DNA of 64,000 bases, from the NCBI GenBank assembly GCA_964356795.1, contig CAYHIK010000005.1, forward strand, positions 10,767 to 74,766, read 5' to 3'. Made by a program: the position numbers and the translations under genes. This document shows, in pieces, positions 3,215 to 28,992 of the stretch. The DNA comes from an uncultured Candidatus Saccharibacteria bacterium. GTDB lineage: Bacteria > Patescibacteriota > Minisyncoccia > 2-02-FULL-40-12 > GWA2-44-9. How positions within the stretch are numbered: the stretch's first letter is position 1; each line of letters starts with the position of its first letter. Under the pieces are notes generated by a model. The model was not told the origin of the DNA. It made no database searches and saw only the letters and a program-made list of their open reading frames with translations.

Positions 3215-3892
3215 ATTACGCATTCTCAAATACCTACGCATCACCGCTCTCTTTCTTTCAAGATATAGATGATGGGGCACTCTTCTGTACAAGAAGGTGC
3301 ACAATATAATACTATCATGAGTTGAATATCGCAATTGGAAGGATCGATGTGATACGCTGATCTTTCTCTTTTGTAGCTCAAGTCTCGCTCTTACGACCTC
3401 TTCAAGGCCGCAAAGGAAGTTTCGACTTCCTGAGGTGAAGATAGTCGACAGGCGTTTTAATATCCGCTGGCCTCTCTTTCCTGTGCCCATTTCTAGGTAA
3501 ATACATCCATCACCATCAAGATATCCTCGGATGAAATGAGCCAGATACGAGGATGGTACGTTTGGGAAGGGAATTGTCAGTGATTTATTTGGGTAAAGGC
3601 CCAACCTTGTAAGATCGTCGAAAATCTTATGACTCCCTATCCTTAGCGTATAGCGTGGCTTCCCAGGATATTTGACATCGTGTCGCAATGGCGTGATGGT
3701 ATGCTCGGAGCCCATCCACTCTCGCATGCGTTCAAGCATTATCCTGTCAGTGCTCGTTACGCTTGTATATTTCCCACGCATATACGGAGCATCCGTGAGG
3801 GATCCGTCGGCATAGAGGTAACCGAGAAGATAGGCCATTCTTGGGTGCCACCTGGAAAAGAAGTCCTCATTGACGGCATATTTTATCCCCAC
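3197..3892 (-). CDS. Free-standing double-motif LAGLIDADG homing endonuclease.
   Basis: Two LAGLIDADG motifs (LLGYLYADGS near residue 22; IRGYLDGDGC near residue 125) about 100 aa apart, as in monomeric I-SceI/I-DmoI-type enzymes. The last 6 codons (GAVVK*) are encoded by the first 18 nt of tRNA-Cys. Confidence 0.8.
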   Translation of the reverse strand: MGIKYAVNEDFFSRWHPRMAYLLGYLYADGSLTDAPYMRGKYTSVTSTDRIMLERMREWMGSEHTITPLRHDVKYPGKPRYTLRIGSHKIFDDLTRLGLYPNKSLTIPFPNVPSSYLAHFIRGYLDGDGCIYLEMGTGKRGQRILKRLSTIFTSGSRNFLCGLEEVVRARLELQKRKISVSHRSFQLRYSTHDSIILCTFLYRRVPHHLYLERKRAVMRRYLRMRNGAVVK

Positions 3893-3930
3893 GCACCAAT
3901 TATAGGTGGTAATAGGTAGCTATGTAAACT

Positions 3931-5478
3931 CTATAACGACTGCGCGACCTGCGCTTCGGTGATGAACTCTATTGTATCACCTTCCTGAATTTTGCCGTCG
4001 AATCCTGAGGTGTCAATGCGCATACCACACTCAACGCCTTGTCCAACTTCTGACACATCTTCTTTTTCCTGCTGAAGGCTCGTGATTTTCCCAATACGTG
4101 TGGGCGTCTCGCCGCGCATGAGATCAGCAATTGCACCCTTCTTCACGACACCCGAAACGACACGCCCTCCAAGGATAATCGTGCGAGCTTCGGTCTTGAA
4201 GATTGCAAGTACGCGGAGTTTTCCGACGACGGTGCGCTCGGTGGTGCTGGGTAAGAGTGTGGTGAGTTCATTTCGAACCGCTTCGATGAGTTCGTAGATG
4301 ATGTCGAATGAGCGGATGATGATTGCGTCGCGCTCGGCAAGTTTCTGTGCAGCGGATTCAGTTTGCACTCGGAACCCAATTACGATGGCTCCCTTCGCGG
4401 CGGCGGTCTTCACGTCTGCCTCGGAGATGTTGCCAATGCCAGAGCTGAGCACGCGTACGCCGACCTGCTCGCTCTTGATGGCGCCCAGTGACAACTCGAT
4501 TGCTTCCAGCGAGCTTGCAACGTCTGCTTTGAAGATAACATTCAGCGTGAGGCGCTTTGTATCGGCGGTGTATTCACCGCGGTAGGTATCAAATGCCACA
4601 GGCGGGGGAGTGACCGAATCCGCGGCGAGCTCTTCGGCTGCTTTCTTTGCGCCCGCGGTTCGGAATTGCTCGCCAACGCGTGGCGCCTCTTGCCATCCCG
4701 TAATCACTACGGGTTGCGAGGGGCGTGCCGTATCAATGATGACGCCATTAAAATCTTCCATACTCTTCACTTTGCCGACGACATGACCAACCACAATCCA
4801 GTCGCCGACGCGGAGGATGCCGTGTTGCACGAGTGCTGTTGCCACATATCCTCGACGCTTATCGAGATTTGATTCGATGATGATGCCATCAGCTGGCCCA
4901 CTCACGTGCTCCTTGAGTTCAGCGAGTTCAGCGACGAGGAGCACCATCTCGAGAAGTTCGGGTATTCCTGCACCAGTTTTTGCAGAGATTTCAATTGCGG
5001 GAGTTTGCCCGCCCCACTCTTCGACGAGCACATCTTCTTGGGCGAGGTCTTGCTTGACCTTGGCGGAGGTAGCGCCTTCTTTGTCTATTTTGTTGATTGC
5101 GACGATGCAGGGGATGCCAGCGTCTTTGATGATGCGGATTGCTTCTTTGGTCTGCGGTTTTACCGATTCATCGGCAGCGATGACGAGAATAGCAATATCG
5201 GCAACTTTCGCACCGCGGCTTCGGATTGCAGTAAACGCTTCGTGGCCCGGGGTGTCGAGGAACGTGATGAGTTTGCCATTCGCTTCTGCTTGATAGGCGC
5301 CGATGTGTTGAGTGATACCCCCTGATTCGCCCTCAATGACATTCGCTTTACGAATGGTATCGAGGAGCTTCGTTTTGCCATGGTCAACATGCCCCAACAC
5401 GACCACGACGGGAGGACGCAACGTTTCCGCTGATTTTTGAGTGGTTGAGGGTGCCATAGCGACGTTGAAGGATACCAC
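3931..5478 (-). CDS. infB: Translation initiation factor IF-2 (short form starting at the G domain).
   Basis: G1 motif VVVVLGHVDHGKTKLLD, DTPGHEAF, NKID, plus the conserved C-terminal beta-barrel domains. Confidence 0.9.
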   Translation of the reverse strand: MVSFNVAMAPSTTQKSAETLRPPVVVVLGHVDHGKTKLLDTIRKANVIEGESGGITQHIGAYQAEANGKLITFLDTPGHEAFTAIRSRGAKVADIAILVIAADESVKPQTKEAIRIIKDAGIPCIVAINKIDKEGATSAKVKQDLAQEDVLVEEWGGQTPAIEISAKTGAGIPELLEMVLLVAELAELKEHVSGPADGIIIESNLDKRRGYVATALVQHGILRVGDWIVVGHVVGKVKSMEDFNGVIIDTARPSQPVVITGWQEAPRVGEQFRTAGAKKAAEELAADSVTPPPVAFDTYRGEYTADTKRLTLNVIFKADVASSLEAIELSLGAIKSEQVGVRVLSSGIGNISEADVKTAAAKGAIVIGFRVQTESAAQKLAERDAIIIRSFDIIYELIEAVRNELTTLLPSTTERTVVGKLRVLAIFKTEARTIILGGRVVSGVVKKGAIADLMRGETPTRIGKITSLQQEKEDVSEVGQGVECGMRIDTSGFDGKIQEGDTIEFITEAQVAQSL

Positions 5479-5517
5479 AGAAAATGTGGTATAGCAACGA
5501 TTTGATTGTGCGGACGC

Positions 5518-5838
5518 TTAGAGAATTCCTTCCTTGCGAAGGGCGGCTACAATGGAGTAGTCGGTGCGACCCGACTCATGCCGGTGCTTTAAGTCAGCTT
5601 CAATGACGTCCCAGATGGATACTTTGACGATGTGATCGTTGTCGACTTGGATGGGGAGCTTTTCCATTTTGTGGACGTGTTCAGTGATGTGGTGGCCCTC
5701 GTTGTCTACGAGATCGTAGATGAAGTACTGAGTGTCTTCTCGAAGATTTGCATCGGGATAGCGTTCGCGCAACTCAGCCATACGAGTTTCGATCTTTTCA
5801 ATAGAACGTTCTCCGCTTGGTGTCTCGTGGTGTTTCAT
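5518..5838 (-). CDS. Hypothetical protein (106 aa). The track ORF was trimmed to the internal ATG that abuts the upstream gene.
   Basis: Begins MKHHETPSGERSIEK; it starts 9 nt after the stop of the upstream membrane-protein gene. The track's 188-aa version overlaps that gene. Confidence 0.5.
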   Translation of the reverse strand: MKHHETPSGERSIEKIETRMAELRERYPDANLREDTQYFIYDLVDNEGHHITEHVHKMEKLPIQVDNDHIVKVSIWDVIEADLKHRHESGRTDYSIVAALRKEGIL

Positions 5839-5846
5839 GGGTGACG

Positions 5847-6275
5847 CTATTTGTACGATGAACGAATCTGGAACAAGACGTACAGCGAAATGCCCGTGCC
5901 AATCAAGAATCCAAAGATGTCGAAGCGGATAAGCGAGCCAACTGCATTCAAGAGTGTGCTGTAGTATAGGAGCTTCCAGCCTGATGCGCGGTGAGCAAAG
6001 AGTCCAGAAACGGCGAGCGCAAGACATACCGCACTTGCAAGCGTGAGAACAGCGCCAAGAATGCCCCCGCCAGCGTACATCCATGCACCCGATGCAAGCA
6101 TCATCTTGCCCGCCATAGCGCTAAAGCCAAACAATGCCAGAATGAACGGCAATGCAAGCACGATACTTACGAGTGCGTAGTACGGAGCTACCTTTATGAG
6201 AAACGACTTAACGTTTGCAGGGAGACTGGGGAGGCCCGCAAACAGATCCGATAACATTTTTTCGAGTTCCTTCAT
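5847..6275 (-). CDS. Hypothetical integral membrane protein (about 4 TM helices).
   Basis: Strongly hydrophobic segments; likely in an operon with the 106-aa downstream gene. Confidence 0.55.
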   Translation of the reverse strand: MKELEKMLSDLFAGLPSLPANVKSFLIKVAPYYALVSIVLALPFILALFGFSAMAGKMMLASGAWMYAGGGILGAVLTLASAVCLALAVSGLFAHRASGWKLLYYSTLLNAVGSLIRFDIFGFLIGTGISLYVLFQIRSSYK

Positions 6276-6340
6276 ATAAATATGATATTAATACGTGCCA
6301 CTATGGTATCACGAGCGCGTGGGGGATGCTATGGAAACTG

Positions 6341-6981
6341 TGCGGAGAGGGTGGGATTCGCCCTCAATTCTTTCGGAAAAAATTTGGGGGCTATCCATAA
6401 AAACTAATTCAGTTTTGAGTAAACTATCTTAAGCATTTCTTGCGGAGATAATTTACTACTATCAATTATACAAAAGTCGTCAAAAGATTTCGACTGCTGT
6501 GCTTTGAAGGTGAAGTCGAAACGATTTTTGTCAAAATCTTTACCCCTGCTTTCGTCTCGCTCCTTCACTCGTGAATGTAATACATCATAAGGTGCAATGA
6601 GAGAAAACTTGTGGAATTGAACACCATACTCATTTGAAATCATTTCGAGCCTTTTCAAGCGTTCTTCTGAAATGCCACTATCAATTACAGCATTTTTATT
6701 TTGCTCAAAAACTCCTTTCAATTTTTCAGTTATAATCTCAAACGCTCTTTTGTTGTCGCTATCTATCGAATCGGTTCTTTCAAGAAGTTTTCTCTCATTG
6801 TCCAAACTGAAAAATTCTGTATTAGAAAGATTGTTTTTGAGCAATTCTGAAAGTGTAGATTTTCCTGAACCTTTTGGCCCATCAAGAAGAATTAGATAGT
6901 TTTTCATATTAAACTTTCAATATTTCTAGTTCTCATATAACTTTTCGTGCAACTCTCTATTTGCGGAGAGGGTGGGATTCG
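6341..6981 (-). mobile_element. tRNA-associated integrated islet: a ~600 bp AT-rich (~30% GC) segment carrying a P-loop kinase gene, bounded by 20-bp direct repeats of the tRNA 3' end (att-like).
   Basis: tgcggagagggtgggattcg occurs at 6341-6360 and again at 6962-6981 (the 3' end of the tRNA at 6964-7050). GC content of the intervening DNA is far below the window average. Confidence 0.55.
6404..6907 (-). CDS. P-loop NTPase / small-molecule kinase-like protein (Walker A GPKGSGKST).
   Basis: N-terminal Walker A motif followed by a kinase-like architecture; very low GC and AT-rich codon usage relative to neighbours. Confidence 0.6.
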   Translation of the reverse strand: MKNYLILLDGPKGSGKSTLSELLKNNLSNTEFFSLDNERKLLERTDSIDSDNKRAFEIITEKLKGVFEQNKNAVIDSGISEERLKRLEMISNEYGVQFHKFSLIAPYDVLHSRVKERDESRGKDFDKNRFDFTFKAQQSKSFDDFCIIDSSKLSPQEMLKIVYSKLN

Positions 6982-7050
6982 AACCCACGAGACTCGTGAG
7001 AGTCCGGCGGTTTAGTAAACCGCTGCTTTCAACCACTCAGCCACCTCTCC
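6964..7050 (-). tRNA. Type II (Ser-like) tRNA with anticodon loop TTACTAA, formally anticodon ACU (A34); discriminator G73.
   Basis: Acceptor GGAGAGG/CCTCTCC, D-arm GCT...AGC, anticodon stem GCGGT/ACCGC, 18-nt variable arm (GGACTC-TCAC-GAGTCT), T-arm GTGGG-TTCGAAT-CCCAC. Aligns position-by-position with bacterial tRNA-Ser but has A rather than G at position 34. Confidence 0.7.
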
Positions 7051-8550: not shown

Positions 8551-8642
8551 TGGCGGAGGCGGGAGGATTCGAACCTCCGAGGGGTTTTGAAGCCCCTGCC
8601 TCTTTAGCAAAGAGGTACATTAGACCACTCTGACACGCCTCC
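8551..8642 (-). tRNA. tRNA-Ser (anticodon GCU), type II, with encoded CCA.
   Basis: Acceptor GGAGGCG/CGCCTCC, anticodon stem CCTCT/AGAGG with loop TTGCTAA, long variable arm CAGGGGCTTCAAAACCCCTC, T-arm GGAGG-TTCGAAT-CCTCC, G73, CCA. Confidence 0.85.
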
Positions 8643-25443: not shown

Positions 25444-25521
25444 TTCGCGGCTGGACGAGGGAGTAATCCCTCGTCCTTTTTTCTTGAAAAAATAGCAATA
25501 ATTCGCTAGAGTACAGAGACT

Positions 25522-28500
25522 ATGTTTGATTTCAAGCAGCTCGAAGAGCGTGTTCTCGCGTTTTGGGATGAGAGCGAAATCTTCAAGAAAAGCGTCGAAC
25601 AGCGCCGCGGTAACAAGCCTTTCGTGTTCTTCGAGGGCCCGCCAACGGCCAATGGAAGCCCCGGCATCCACCATTTCGTGGGGCGCATTTTTAAAGACAT
25701 CTTCAACCGATATCAGGCCATGCGCGGACGCTATGTGTTGCGCAAGGGGGGATGGGATACGCATGGTCTACCCGTAGAGCTTGGTGTGGAAAAAGAGCTC
25801 GGATTCAAGAGTAAGAAAGATATCGAGGCCTACGGCATTGCTGCGTACAATGCGAAGTGTCGTGAATCGGTGTGGAAATACAAGTCAGAGTGGGAGCAGT
25901 TCACGCGCCGCATCGGATACTGGGTTGACCTCGATGATCCGTATGTCACGTACGAAAGCGCATACATCGAGTCGCTCTGGAATGTTATTGGAAAAATATG
26001 GGACAAGAATTTGCTCTATCAAGCGCACCGCGTTGTCCCGTTTTGTACGCGTTGTGGAACCCCACTATCAAGCCATGAAGTTGCACAGGGATACAAAACG
26101 GTCACCGACACATCGGTGTTCTTGAAGTTCAAGGTCACGAAGTCCAAACTCAAACTTCCTCCGGAGACATATATCTTAGCTTGGACGACGACGCCGTGGA
26201 CGCTTCCGGGGAACATCGCCCTTGCCGTTGGGAAAAACATCCAGTATGTGCTCGCGCGTCGCAATGGTTCCGATGAGCACTTCATTCTTGCCGCTGACTT
26301 GGCGCAGACGGTGCTCGGCGCGCCTCTGGCGATTGTGCAAGAGTTTTCTGGAGCACAATTAGTGGGTACCGCGTACGAACCGCTCTTCCCAGTGCGTGCG
26401 CTGAAGAAGCCGAAATCGTACAAGGTATACGACGCCGACTTCGTATCGACAACCGACGGCACGGGCGTTGTGCATACGGCAGTTATGTACGGAGAGGATG
26501 ATTATCAGCTTGGCACAAAGCTTGGACTCGCAAAGGTCCATACTGTCGATGAGCAGGGGAAGTTTGTGGGCGTTTCCGGCGAGCTTGATGGGTGCTATGT
26601 GAAGTCGACAAAAACAGAAGAGCTTATTCTTACGTCGCTTGAATCGCGTGGGCTCCTCTTGAAGCGCTTGCCATTTGAGCACGAGTATCCATTTTGCTGG
26701 CGCTGTGAGACTCCGCTTTTGTACTACGCAAAGGATAGCTGGTTTATTCGCATGAGTGATGTGAATAAACAAATGATTGCGAATAACAACACGATTAACT
26801 GGATCCCATCCCACTTGAAAGATGGACGATTTGGGCAGTGGATTAAAGAGGGGAAAGACTGGGCATTCTCGCGAGAGCGATATTGGGCAACGCCACTTCC
26901 GATTTGGCAGGCGCGAGATAAGCATGGCCGAGGAACGGGAAAGTATCTCGTCGCCTCGTCACTTGAAGACCTCGACACCTATCGAGCCGACGCGCCCGCG
27001 ACATTCTGGACGATGCGTCATGGGGAGTCAAAGATTAATGTGGAGCAGGTGCTTGATTCTGGGCAGCAGGCGTCTCCATTGACTGACATTGGGCGCGAGC
27101 AGGCGCTCCGTACCGCGCAAGAATTAAAGAAAAAACTCAAGGCCTCTCGTGGAAAGATTGCAGCAATTATTGCTTCTCCGATTCAGCGCACAAAAGAAAC
27201 CGCAGAAATTGCTGCGCGGGAATTAGGAATCAAGACCGTTATATTCGATGAGCGACTCCGCGAGATTCATCTGGGACCATCGCTGAGCGGATGTCACGAC
27301 TCAACGTATCACGAGCAATACCCAACCTATGAGTCGAAATTCGCGAACCGTCCTCCTGGCGGAGAGTCTGTTGCCGACCTTAAGGCACGCGCGTGGAATT
27401 TCCTCAAAGAGCTGAATACGACCTATGCCGGCAAGCAGGTGCTCGTCGTGAGTCATGAATATTCAATCTGGGCGCTCGCTGATGCCGCCAATGCGTGGAG
27501 CGTGAAGCAGTCAATTGAGGAAAAGACGAAGCGTGGCGATGATTTTATCGGACTTGCGGGCCTTGAAAAGATTGTTGTTCGCAATGTGCCGAGGAATGAC
27601 CGAGGTGAGCTTGATATGCATCGACCCTATGTCGACGATATTATCCTCAAGCATCCGAAGTCGAAGGTTCCACTCTATCGTGTACCCGAGCTTTGCGATG
27701 TGTGGTTTGACTCGGGCGCGATGCCGTATGCTCAGTGGCATTGGCCGTTCGAGAATAATGAGACGTTCAAACAGCAGTTTCCTGCGGACTTTATTGCGGA
27801 AGGAATTGATCAAACACGCGGGTGGTTCTACACGCTTCTCGCTATTTCGACATTGCTCGGAAATCCGGCACCGTTTAAGACTGTGCTCTCATTCGGGCAT
27901 GTGCTCGATGAGAAGGGGCAAAAGATGTCGAAGTCGAAGGGAAATATCGTGAAGCCTGATGAGGTTATCGACGCCGTTGGCGTGGATACTGCGCGTTGGT
28001 ACTTCTATACACTCAATGCTCCGGGCGACTCGAAAAACTACTCCATGAAAGAAGTGCGCGAGCGATTGACGGGCTTTATGATGACGCTTCAGAATTGCAT
28101 TCGATTTTACGAATTGTATCAGGCGGAGCACCATGCCCCGGTGCGCGTTGACGTTCCTGATGCAACGAATCAGCTCGATGTGTGGATGATGTCCCGCCTT
28201 GAGCGTCTTACCGCGCTCGTGTTTGAGCGTCTCGAGCAATTCGACCTTACGGTTGCGTCTCGCGAGATTGAGCGATTTGTGGTGGATGATTTTAGTCAGT
28301 GGTGGCTACGGCGGAGCAGAAAGCGTGATGATGCCCTGCCGTTCATGCGCCACATCCTCCGAAGGCTCTCGCTTCTGTTGGCTCCATTCATCCCATTTAC
28401 TGCTGAAGATCTCTGGGGAAAGTTGCGGGGCAAAAATGATCCTGAATCTGTCCATCTCGCTGACTGGCCGAAAGCCCATACGAGTGCTGTGAACGAGTCT

Positions 28501-28992
28501 CTTGAGACGCAGATGGCGCAGGTTCGCGAATATATTCGTGCCGGACTTGCGATTCGAAAAGACCAGCAAATTAAAGTCCGCCAGCCACTCCAAAAGGTGA
28601 CCGTTCCCGGTACGCAACTGCACGAAGATATGGAGCAGTTGATTCGCGACGAGCTCAATGTGAAAGAAGTCACATATGCCGTGGGTGAGCCCGTGGCGCT
28701 CGATGTTCATATTGGCACCGAGCTTCGTGCGGAAGGGTTCGCGCGCGAAGCTATGCGTACCATTCAAGATATGCGCAAAGAGATTGGATGCCAGGTTTCT
28801 GACAAGGTATATTGCCAATGGCATAGTACCGATGACGAGGTTTCCCGGGCACTACGCTCATACGGGGGCGCAATCGCTGACGACACTGGCCTCACTGAAT
28901 TTGTAGAGCGGCCCGACGACAAAACGCTCACGATTGAGAAGAATTTTGACCTCGCAGCCGGAAAGCCTCTCTGGATTGGTATTCGGAAATAA
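25522..28992 (+). CDS. ileS: Isoleucyl-tRNA synthetase, eukaryote/archaeal-like type 2, carrying an in-frame ~200-aa histidine-phosphatase (PGAM-like) domain insertion and a non-canonical HIGH motif.
   Basis: IleRS hallmarks: GPPTANG..., GWDTHGLPVE, WTTTPWTLPGN editing motif, WAFSRERYWATPLPIW, DVWFDSG, KMSKS. Between PIW and LDMHR (normally ~35 aa) lie ~250 aa containing RHGES..N, LTDIGREQA, SPIQRTKETAEIA and VVSHE motifs of branch-1 histidine phosphatases. Confidence 0.85.
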   Translation: MFDFKQLEERVLAFWDESEIFKKSVEQRRGNKPFVFFEGPPTANGSPGIHHFVGRIFKDIFNRYQAMRGRYVLRKGGWDTHGLPVELGVEKELGFKSKKDIEAYGIAAYNAKCRESVWKYKSEWEQFTRRIGYWVDLDDPYVTYESAYIESLWNVIGKIWDKNLLYQAHRVVPFCTRCGTPLSSHEVAQGYKTVTDTSVFLKFKVTKSKLKLPPETYILAWTTTPWTLPGNIALAVGKNIQYVLARRNGSDEHFILAADLAQTVLGAPLAIVQEFSGAQLVGTAYEPLFPVRALKKPKSYKVYDADFVSTTDGTGVVHTAVMYGEDDYQLGTKLGLAKVHTVDEQGKFVGVSGELDGCYVKSTKTEELILTSLESRGLLLKRLPFEHEYPFCWRCETPLLYYAKDSWFIRMSDVNKQMIANNNTINWIPSHLKDGRFGQWIKEGKDWAFSRERYWATPLPIWQARDKHGRGTGKYLVASSLEDLDTYRADAPATFWTMRHGESKINVEQVLDSGQQASPLTDIGREQALRTAQELKKKLKASRGKIAAIIASPIQRTKETAEIAARELGIKTVIFDERLREIHLGPSLSGCHDSTYHEQYPTYESKFANRPPGGESVADLKARAWNFLKELNTTYAGKQVLVVSHEYSIWALADAANAWSVKQSIEEKTKRGDDFIGLAGLEKIVVRNVPRNDRGELDMHRPYVDDIILKHPKSKVPLYRVPELCDVWFDSGAMPYAQWHWPFENNETFKQQFPADFIAEGIDQTRGWFYTLLAISTLLGNPAPFKTVLSFGHVLDEKGQKMSKSKGNIVKPDEVIDAVGVDTARWYFYTLNAPGDSKNYSMKEVRERLTGFMMTLQNCIRFYELYQAEHHAPVRVDVPDATNQLDVWMMSRLERLTALVFERLEQFDLTVASREIERFVVDDFSQWWLRRSRKRDDALPFMRHILRRLSLLLAPFIPFTAEDLWGKLRGKNDPESVHLADWPKAHTSAVNESLETQMAQVREYIRAGLAIRKDQQIKVRQPLQKVTVPGTQLHEDMEQLIRDELNVKEVTYAVGEPVALDVHIGTELRAEGFAREAMRTIQDMRKEIGCQVSDKVYCQWHSTDDEVSRALRSYGGAIADDTGLTEFVERPDDKTLTIEKNFDLAAGKPLWIGIRK

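Follow-up and report, generated by a model that had tools for sequence, protein, structure and literature searches.

The CP1 editing domain of the class Ia aminoacyl-tRNA synthetases is the classical nested hydrolytic domain that receives the 3′ end of a tRNA: it lies within the Rossmann fold, is universal in the isoleucyl-, valyl- and leucyl-tRNA synthetases (IleRS, ValRS and LeuRS), and hydrolyses aminoacyl esters. To our knowledge, this editing domain is the known nested catalytic module of bacterial aminoacyl-tRNA synthetases. The present analysis concerns a 64,000-nucleotide stretch of DNA, referred to here as the window (assembly GCA_964356795.1, contig CAYHIK010000005.1, positions 10,767 to 74,766 of the forward strand), in which a single gene encodes an IleRS that carries an unrelated enzyme domain, a branch-1 histidine phosphatase of the His_Phos_1 family, inside its CP3 subdomain. 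In contrast to CP1, this insert is lineage-specific and is predicted to be a phosphoesterase; given the CP1 precedent, a further nested catalytic site is mechanistically conceivable. We tentatively favour, while stopping short of calling it probable, the view that the nested domain is a catalytically competent enzyme that serves nucleotide or tRNA-end chemistry linked to IleRS.

Among solved structures, the IleRS2 of P. megaterium (8c8u, 8c8v and 8c8w) and the IleRS of T. thermophilus (1ile) share the whole body of the window protein (Rossmann/HUP fold, CP core, CP1 editing domain, CP2, CP3, anticodon-binding domain and type-2 C-terminus), whereas the window protein differs from them in having an enzyme domain of ~205 residues inside CP3 and in lacking both the zinc cysteines of CP3 and the INS subdomain of ARD2. 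The insert, in turn, shares its fold and the R-H-G, R, E and H residues, at 20–36% identity, with GpgP (Rv2419c, 4pz9), PspA (4ij5), PhoE (1h2e/1ebb), CobC (6e4b) and TIGAR (3dcy), but these are free-standing, often dimeric metabolite phosphatases, whereas the window domain is nested in another enzyme. A nucleic-acid enzyme joined to a CobC-like His_Phos_1 domain occurs in the bifunctional RNase H–acid phosphatases of actinobacteria (Rv2228c/SCO2299 type, PRK07238); there, however, the partner is RNase H and the joining is end to end, and we know of no settled functional logic for those fusions. Extra enzymes hosted by IleRS are also represented by the family NF040702 ([quoted passage not shown]) and by heavily decorated IleRS of Gracilibacteria and Peregrinibacteria, in which GNAT domains stand at CP3 directly after His_Phos_1, whereas the window protein contains no GNAT domain and scores 292 bits against the NF040702 cut-off of 1999. 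The end-healing enzymes T4 Pnkp and bacterial Pnkp1/Hen1 offer a likeness that is conceptual only, namely a phosphatase (accompanied in some relatives by a PNK/PSTK-like P-loop kinase) on a tRNA-handling protein; the window domain has the His_Phos_1 fold and not that of HAD-PNK3P or the metallophosphoesterases, and it has neither a kinase nor a ligase partner, so that an assignment as a polynucleotide kinase-phosphatase was rejected.

An earlier note on this DNA had called the architecture undescribed, and a literature search indeed found no paper in which IleRS and a histidine phosphatase are linked, nor is the combination mentioned in a 2026 survey that covered 96,219 IleRS sequences. Automatic names at JGI sometimes read [quoted passage not shown], and because the architecture is present in public databases in this way, its novelty lies in recognition and interpretation and not in a new sequence. 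As far as could be tested, the combination of these two well-known families matches no described system that we found.

The synthetase and its nested phosphatase

The open reading frame (ORF) is continuous and in frame over 1156 codons, as the earlier note had described it, and family models identify its product as a bona fide type-2 IleRS of class Ia. The protein scores 837.8 bits against the IleRS equivalog model TIGR00392 (cut-off, 621.4), the Pfam tRNA-synt_1 (PF00133) match consists of two stretches on either side of the His_Phos_1 match, and matches to Anticodon_1 (residues 886–1026) and DUF5915 (residues 1058–1129) correspond to the type-2 C-terminal organization. The closest solved structure is P. 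megaterium IleRS2 8c8w (phmmer E = 5.6e-246). An AlphaFold2 model of the full-length protein has a mean predicted local distance difference test score (pLDDT) of 89.7 and a predicted template-modelling score (pTM) of 0.81, and its Foldseek template-modelling (TM) scores, which are target-normalised, are 0.83 to IleRS2 8c8v and 0.92 to 1ile. The type-2 assignment made in the earlier note therefore stands. No second IleRS gene was found within the 64-kb window, and the protein is predicted to be the housekeeping IleRS of the organism, charging tRNA(Ile) with isoleucine.

Residue conservation was assessed in two alignments, one of 115 close homologs (A1) and one of 29 divergent fusions with an insert identity of 27–53% (A2). 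The features of the gene, in window coordinates, are as follows.

25522..28992 (+): complete IleRS–phosphatase ORF, 1156 amino acids, with the stop codon at 28990–28992
25663..25674 (+): “HIGH” signature of class I, here non-canonical (G48-I-H-H51), located by sequence; H51 is invariant in A1
26182..26202 (+): Thr-rich peptide of the CP1 editing domain, W221-TTTPW-T227; T222, T223 and T224 are invariant in the 115 homologs
26854..26886 (+): CP2-3 linker, K445-DWAFSRERY-W455, placed by sequence correspondence to yeast IleRS 453-ARDWNVSRNRYWG-465
26908..27000 (+): native N-terminal half of CP3, residues 463–493 (strand 471–477, helix 481–486), from alignment and the secondary structure of the model
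27001..27537 (+): branch-1 histidine phosphatase (His_Phos_1/PGAM-like), residues 494–672
27016..27021 (+): R499-H500 of the RHG motif (phosphate clamp and nucleophilic histidine), invariant in A1, in A2 and in all copies of the multi-copy proteins
27187..27189 (+): R556, second phosphate-binding Arg (SP..RT motif), invariant
27262..27264 (+): E581, position of the general acid/base (proton donor), invariant in A1; in A2, E in 25 of 29 and D in 4 of 29
27454..27456 (+): H645, second catalytic His (SHE/SHG motif), invariant
27538..27606 (+): segment leading from the phosphatase back to CP3, residues 673–695 (strand 681–685)
27607..28161 (+): second half of the Rossmann/HUP catalytic fold, residues 696–880 (LDMHRPY, DVWFDSG, KMSKS)
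27922..27936 (+): KMSKS, residues 801–805, the class I signature
28162..28989 (+): anticodon-binding domain and type-2 C-terminal domains, residues 881–1156, from Pfam

Within the whole protein, His_Phos_1 (PF00300) matches residues 496–662 with E = 2.4e-34 and 119.2 bits against a cut-off of 21.7, and a search with the insert alone (residues 476–703) gives E = 1.9e-35 and 122.7 bits. The location agrees with the range that the earlier note had given for the domain (26995–27600, residues 492–693), and the motifs listed there are all present: RHGES at 499–503, LT..G..QA at 520–527, SP..RT.ETAEI at 552–563 and SHE at 644–646. When modelled alone with AlphaFold2, the insert has a pLDDT of 95.8 and a pTM of 0.92, and a Foldseek probability of 1.00 to many His_Phos_1 structures identifies the PGAM-like alpha/beta fold; its neighbours (E from 1e-14 to 1e-11, TM ~0.7) are Rv2419c GpgP, the mycobacterial hydrolases 6s2q/6s2r, PspA, TIGAR, the riboflavin-pathway HFP, PhoE and CobC. 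In these models the phosphatase is an independently folded domain on short linkers, which was one of the outcomes that the earlier note had considered.

The residues R499, H500, S552, R556, E581, R623 and H645 are invariant in A1, and R499, H500, R556, E615 and H645 are invariant in A2. Because the catalytic residues are invariant in the 115 close and 29 distant proteins and in all duplicated copies, because the insert is under purifying selection (see below), and because the fold is predicted with confidence, the phosphatase looks active, and phosphomonoesterase activity via a phospho-histidine is predicted. Assignment to a characterized family was attempted and rejected for each candidate, the scores (in bits) being given here against the curated cut-offs: dPGM (TIGR01258, 25.9 vs. 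81.7; NF038349, 86.5 vs. 225; PRK14115, 25 vs. 305), the alpha-ribazole phosphatase CobC (TIGR03162, 77.8 vs. 162.9; PRK15004, 51.5 vs. 250), SixA (TIGR00249, 29.6 vs. 74.5, with a match that covers the first 74 residues only), the phosphoserine phosphatase PspA (NF045917, 54.8 vs. 350), GpmB (below its curated cut-off), and the RNase H/acid phosphatase PRK07238, which at 102.6 vs. 326 is nevertheless the best NCBIfam match of the insert. By these models, which include no curated equivalog threshold that it reaches, the insert is a distinct His_Phos_1 subfamily. The isoelectric point (pI) of the window insert is basic, at 9.1, but the median for the inserts of the family is 6.2, compared with 8.2 for the IleRS body, and RNA binding inferred from charge was dropped for this reason.

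The CP3 subdomain spans residues 473–534 in C. albicans IleRS and 459–526 in yeast, contains a zinc motif in T. thermophilus IleRS (PMC7191050), and starts directly after the CP2-3 linker (PMC7191050; PMC7955072). In yeast, this linker (453–465) lines the pocket for the 3′-CCA of the tRNA, and R462 binds the phosphate of A76 (PMC7955072). R453 of the window IleRS aligns with yeast R462, both R451 and R453 are invariant in A1, and the first strand of the phosphatase begins at F494, 41 residues past R453. Residues 465 to 696 of the window protein correspond to residues 460 to 485 of the 8c8w chain, so that ~205 residues have been added to a connector of ~25, and insert-free relatives have ~30 amino acids at this region. 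In an alignment with three insert-free loci (L062, L050 and L073) and one insert-bearing locus (L011), the domain falls between two CxxC halves, “W.CG.C....GS..EL” before and “LKC..CGG.M” after it. The alignments thus place the insertion in CP3, inside the zinc knuckle of the relatives; the earlier note was right that the catalytic region is interrupted, but the site is this zinc-knuckle region and not a position between generic Rossmann blocks. The CxxC...CxxC knuckle flanks the insertion point in most relatives, with or without an insert. In the window protein all four of its cysteines are lost (QARDKHGRGTG and KHPKSKV, 26908–26950 and 27640–27670, residues ~463–476 and ~707–716), the native second half after the return segment reading “LKHPKSKV” in place of “LKC..CGG”, and the CP3 of the window protein therefore presumably no longer binds zinc.

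A fused frame could in principle have arisen by chimeric assembly or by a frameshift joining neighbouring genes, and we consider the likelihood of this negligible. The ORF is continuous and the GC content is flat across the insert junctions. The closest homolog (P0001) comes from an independently assembled Logan contig (L082); its ORF is exactly as long as that of the window, the nucleotide identity is 91.3%, and the gene order is the same (LigA-GatC-GatA-hypothetical-VanW-membrane protein-IleRS-M23 peptidase-DNA alkylation repair). More than 100 independent homologs have the same junctions: among the best 120 homologs, which range from 98% to ~50% identity and were drawn from NCBI, JGI, ENA and Logan assemblies with contigs of up to 615 kb, PF00133 and PF00300 are both present in 120 of 120. 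Nothing in the window favours an artefact, and the IleRS frame is broken in or near the insert, into two overlapping ORFs, in three distant loci (L039, 3681–7158; L042, 3663–7345; L017, 3854–6605), where the breaks could be sequencing or assembly frameshifts or a truly split gene. Between the window and L082, the 197 codons of the insert show 25 synonymous and 3 nonsynonymous changes, and the 959 codons of the IleRS body show 239 and 23, respectively, which indicates that purifying selection on the insert is as strong as on the essential synthetase.

The remainder of the synthetase retains the elements of its class. The consensus at the HIGH motif is PGIHH across insert-bearing homologs; the [A/G]XHH form of this motif has been linked to mupirocin hyper-resistance in IleRS2 (recent preprint), and the GIHH of the window protein has the GXHH form in common with the hyper-resistant enzymes. 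The other editing-site residues are G313-TGVVH318 and D327, of which H318 and D327 are invariant in the 115 homologs; on the roles of T222–T224, H318 and D327 that we take to be established for IleRS, the sequences WTTTPWT (221–227) and GTGVVH (313–318) together with D327 indicate an intact post-transfer editing site. The zinc cysteines of the CP core (C175, C178, C392 and C395) are invariant across the same 115 homologs, as are D726, W728, D730, S731, G732, K801, S803 and K804. The window protein does not have the ~80-residue INS subdomain of ARD2, with which P. megaterium IleRS2 touches the tRNA D-loop; its residues 1050 and 1057 (window ~28670–28700) align with residues 847 and 936 of the 8c8w chain.

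Distribution, history and elaborated relatives

An exhaustive search of 1.84 billion protein cluster representatives with the insert alone gave 9032 matches at E ≤ 1e-3 and 493 at E ≤ 1e-10. IleRS sequence lies on one or both sides of the insert in 116 of the 150 best representatives, 35 of the 150 being full-length fusions, and IleRS is the exclusive fusion partner among them. A scan of GTDB species genomes with a single-protein query that spanned the insert junctions found insert-bearing IleRS in Yanofskybacteria, Harrisonbacteria, Colwellbacteria, Paceibacterota, Parcubacteria and metagenome-assembled genomes (MAGs) labelled “Patescibacteria group”, and insert-free type-2 IleRS in Bacteroidota, Chloroflexota and others; more distant variant homologs occur in Gracilibacteria, Peregrinibacteria and Peribacteria. 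The comparison with relatives that the earlier note had proposed thus shows an architecture that is old, widespread and abundant in public databases across Patescibacteria, and the note's suggestion of novelty holds for the literature but not as rarity.

In neighbour-joining trees of the IleRS body, computed with the insert removed and without support values, all insert-bearing IleRS form one deep clade of the candidate phyla radiation (CPR), and the insert-free proteins of L062 and L050 are nested inside it. The former (3681–6518) is a Yanofskybacterium IleRS of 946 amino acids and the latter (3582–6632) an IleRS of 1017 amino acids from a “Patescibacteria group” MAG; both have an intact CP3 zinc knuckle, and they are natural deletion controls for the insert. 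The trees are read most simply as a single early gain of the insert with two or more later losses, a reading that is provisional because the trees carry no support values. The insert evolves faster than the body, with a mean identity of 41% compared with 62%.

Several MAGs titled “uncultured Candidatus Saccharibacteria” (L001, L003, L004, L007 and others) encode an IleRS that is 65–68% identical to that of the window in the queried region and group in the tree with the window and two Yanofskybacteria MAGs (L002 and L006); their Saccharibacteria titles may be generic or wrong labels.

Many matches of 190–210 amino acids appear to be free-standing, but they sit on contigs of 1–5 kb, and at least one of them (P0164) clusters with a 723-residue member (P0271), so that they are not acceptable as true stand-alone genes. 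The neighbours of one free-standing relative (P0188) gave no Pfam matches. Ten proteins, P0148 (450 amino acids), P0159, P0182, P0230, P0242, P0244, P0247, P0249, P0264 and P0265, consist of two tandem His_Phos_1 domains, related to the insert, over ~380–450 amino acids, with intact catalytic residues and without IleRS flanks; they could be stand-alone relatives with two domains, contaminants, or pieces of multi-copy fusions, and the source of P0148 is a dinoflagellate transcriptome (Gymnodinium smaydae).

Some relatives carry more than one phosphatase. Two tandem domains are found at the CP3 site in P0147, P0176, P0224 and P0253; P0163, P0261 and P0266 have one domain at CP3 and a further one after the KMSKS/stem-contact block, ahead of the anticodon-binding domain; and P0126 has four copies. 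The catalytic residues are kept in every complete copy, and the multi-copy variants are real, since the P0261 cluster has six members on contigs of up to 1.06 Mb. In enzymes of the Gracilibacteria/Peregrinibacteria type, the His_Phos_1 domain at the CP3 site is succeeded by either a GNAT acetyltransferase or a P-loop kinase, an AAA_33/Zeta-toxin-like kinase may stand at the second site, and DUF559 or IS200-transposase-like (Y1_Tnp) domains occur in the N-terminal part; in P0347, a HAD phosphatase of the phosphoglycolate-phosphatase/PpaX/nucleotidase type replaces His_Phos_1 at CP3. The best match of the co-inserted P-loop kinase is L-seryl-tRNA(Sec) kinase (PSTK), a weak one below the cut-off (E = 4.5e-10, 39 bits), and among solved structures the RNA-repair enzyme Pnkp1, again weakly (E = 7e-4). 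Heavily decorated IleRS of up to 1860 amino acids were observed in Gracilibacteria, Peregrinibacteria and Peribacteria (P0286, P0288, P0298, P0347, P0348, P0363, P0367 and P0369), with one to three His_Phos_1 domains, GNAT, PSTK/PNK-like and Zeta-toxin-like kinases, a HAD phosphatase, an alpha/beta hydrolase, and DUF559/PDDEXK nuclease-like and IS200 Y1-transposase-like domains, the extra domains occupying two or three recurrent sites.

Genomic surroundings

The surrounding window has the ordinary housekeeping content of a Patescibacteria-like genome, with LigA, GatA, GatB, PheT, GyrB, ThrRS, DnaE, IF-2 and pilus genes. Two elements stand just upstream of the IleRS gene and suggest, weakly, that it is its own transcription unit.

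25453..25476: terminator-like hairpin, assigned to the upstream gene and preceding the promoter-like site
25484..25512 (+): promoter-like site just 5′ of the IleRS start, weak and from a consensus scan only

Many relatives have, immediately upstream of IleRS and within ~1–2.5 kb, an ORF of 530–630 amino acids that weakly matches the profile of the class I synthetase KMSKS block (L008, L013, L016–L018, L021, L026, L029, L032, L033, L035–L040, L042, L043, L045 and L062), and it probably encodes another class I aminoacyl-tRNA synthetase. The window has no such neighbour, and VanW and a membrane protein precede IleRS instead. Elsewhere in the window, a type II tRNA with a long variable arm (6963–7050, − strand) has the anticodon loop TTACTAA, corresponding to tRNA-Ser with the anticodon ACU, in which A34 is unusual; a normal tRNA-Ser(GCU) lies close to it at 8551–8642.

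Function of the inserted domain

If the nested domain acts on ligands of IleRS, as we tentatively favour, its chemistry would follow the standard mechanism of the family: a phosphomonoester would be held by R499, R556 and H645, H500 would attack as the nucleophile, E581 would protonate the leaving group, and the phospho-histidine would then be hydrolysed. IleRS would then have three active sites, synthetic, editing and phosphatase, the last with an activity tied to IleRS ligands. Its substrate may be a phosphorylated ligand of nucleotide type or a phosphorylated 3′ end of tRNA(Ile), in which a 3′-phosphate or pyrophosphate would block charging; the IleRS body would provide binding and the insert dephosphorylation. 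Coupling of this kind is suggested because the partner is exclusively IleRS (116 of the 150 best representatives being fusions, in a single clade), because two IleRS sites have repeatedly gained phosphoryl-transfer domains, among them the non-homologous HAD domain at CP3 and a tRNA/RNA-kinase-like partner, because CP3 adjoins the A76-binding linker, and because IleRS already moves the CCA end between two active sites. The short linkers and the pTM of the whole protein, which point to a rigid graft, are also in favour of it. The toxSAS toxins pyrophosphorylate the CCA ends of tRNAs and stop charging, and a blocked tRNA 3′ end is therefore biologically plausible.

Several observations weigh against such coupling. 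We know of no His_Phos_1 enzyme that acts on RNA ends, and the closest structures and family models of the insert (GpgP, PspA, PhoE, CobC and TIGAR) are all small-molecule phosphatases. The inserts are usually mildly acidic, which makes them no obvious RNA binders, and they evolve faster than the body. The losses in L062 and L050 imply that IleRS works without the insert; the GNAT, nuclease-like and transposase-like domains at the same sites imply that these sites may simply tolerate insertions; and the kinase similarities in relatives are weak and lie below curated cut-offs. A more specific form of the coupled reading, which we regard as doubtful, is a “charge-and-heal” IleRS, in which the phosphatase would be a third destination of the 3′ end of tRNA(Ile) and would remove a 3′- or 2′-phosphate or pyrophosphate from A76 to permit charging. 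The phosphate groups on A76 may come from CCA pyrophosphorylation of the toxSAS type or from nuclease or kinase action, and in relatives that add a PSTK/PNK-like kinase and GNAT, IleRS would be a multi-enzyme platform that modifies or repairs tRNA ends.

A close rival, which we hold to be a serious possibility, is that the insert is an active but autonomous enzyme acting on a free small metabolite in house-cleaning or central metabolism and uncoupled from aminoacylation; IleRS would only carry it, as a protein that is stable and constitutively made in a minimal genome, and CP3 would be a permissive site. The small-molecule phosphatases among its nearest structures and families, the phosphoglycolate-phosphatase/PpaX/nucleotidase type of the HAD alternative in P0347, the acidic pI and faster evolution of the insert, its loss in two lineages, and the acceptance of GNAT, DUF559 and Y1_Tnp domains at the same sites all favour a hosted enzyme, and no further His_Phos_1 gene besides the insert was found within the 64-kb window. 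A hosted enzyme agrees less well with the exclusivity of IleRS as partner among the best 150 representatives, with the repeated addition of phosphoryl-transfer domains at two IleRS sites, and with the short and rigid attachment by the CCA-pocket linker; furthermore, no curated metabolic equivalog threshold is reached. The His_Phos_1 superfamily also includes the protein phosphatases SixA, PGAM5 and Sts-1, and the insert might instead act as a regulatory or antitoxin switch that frees IleRS or a partner protein of an inhibitory phosphate; a toxin kinase, of the HipA type or another, or the P-loop kinase found in some relatives could have attached it. The presence of both a kinase and a phosphatase on IleRS in some relatives and the use of “SixA” in JGI names would fit this proposal, which we nonetheless find improbable: the SixA model scores below its cut-off, SixA, Sts and PGAM5 are not among the structural neighbours, which are metabolite phosphatases, the co-inserted kinases belong with nucleotide or RNA kinases and not with protein kinases, and the window protein contains no kinase. 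Still less credible is a non-catalytic module, in which a pseudo-enzyme would take the place of the CP3 zinc knuckle for structural purposes, tRNA binding or protein docking. In its favour are the basic insert of the window protein and the loss there of the four knuckle cysteines, which in most relatives stand on either side of the insert; most relatives, however, keep the zinc knuckle and the insert together, and all five catalytic residues are invariant (E or D at position 581) both across deeply diverged proteins and in every duplicate, which is unexpected for a pseudo-enzyme.

Aminoacyl-tRNA synthetases are among the most studied enzymes, and here an unrelated, apparently active phosphatase lies within the catalytic fold of an essential one. 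The case is also a caution for annotation, since the label of such proteins says no more than “class I tRNA ligase family protein”. If the insert is only a hosted metabolic enzyme, it would still be a clear natural domain insertion into CP3, with L062 and L050 as insert-free controls, and useful for the engineering of synthetases. If it does act on tRNA ends or adenylate-type ligands, as the reading favoured here proposes, it would constitute a new step of translation quality control or repair, possibly one that counters tRNA-phosphorylating toxins. The conservation of the architecture through a deep CPR branch and its elaboration in relatives point to an unrecognised chemistry attached to isoleucine charging in minimal genomes.

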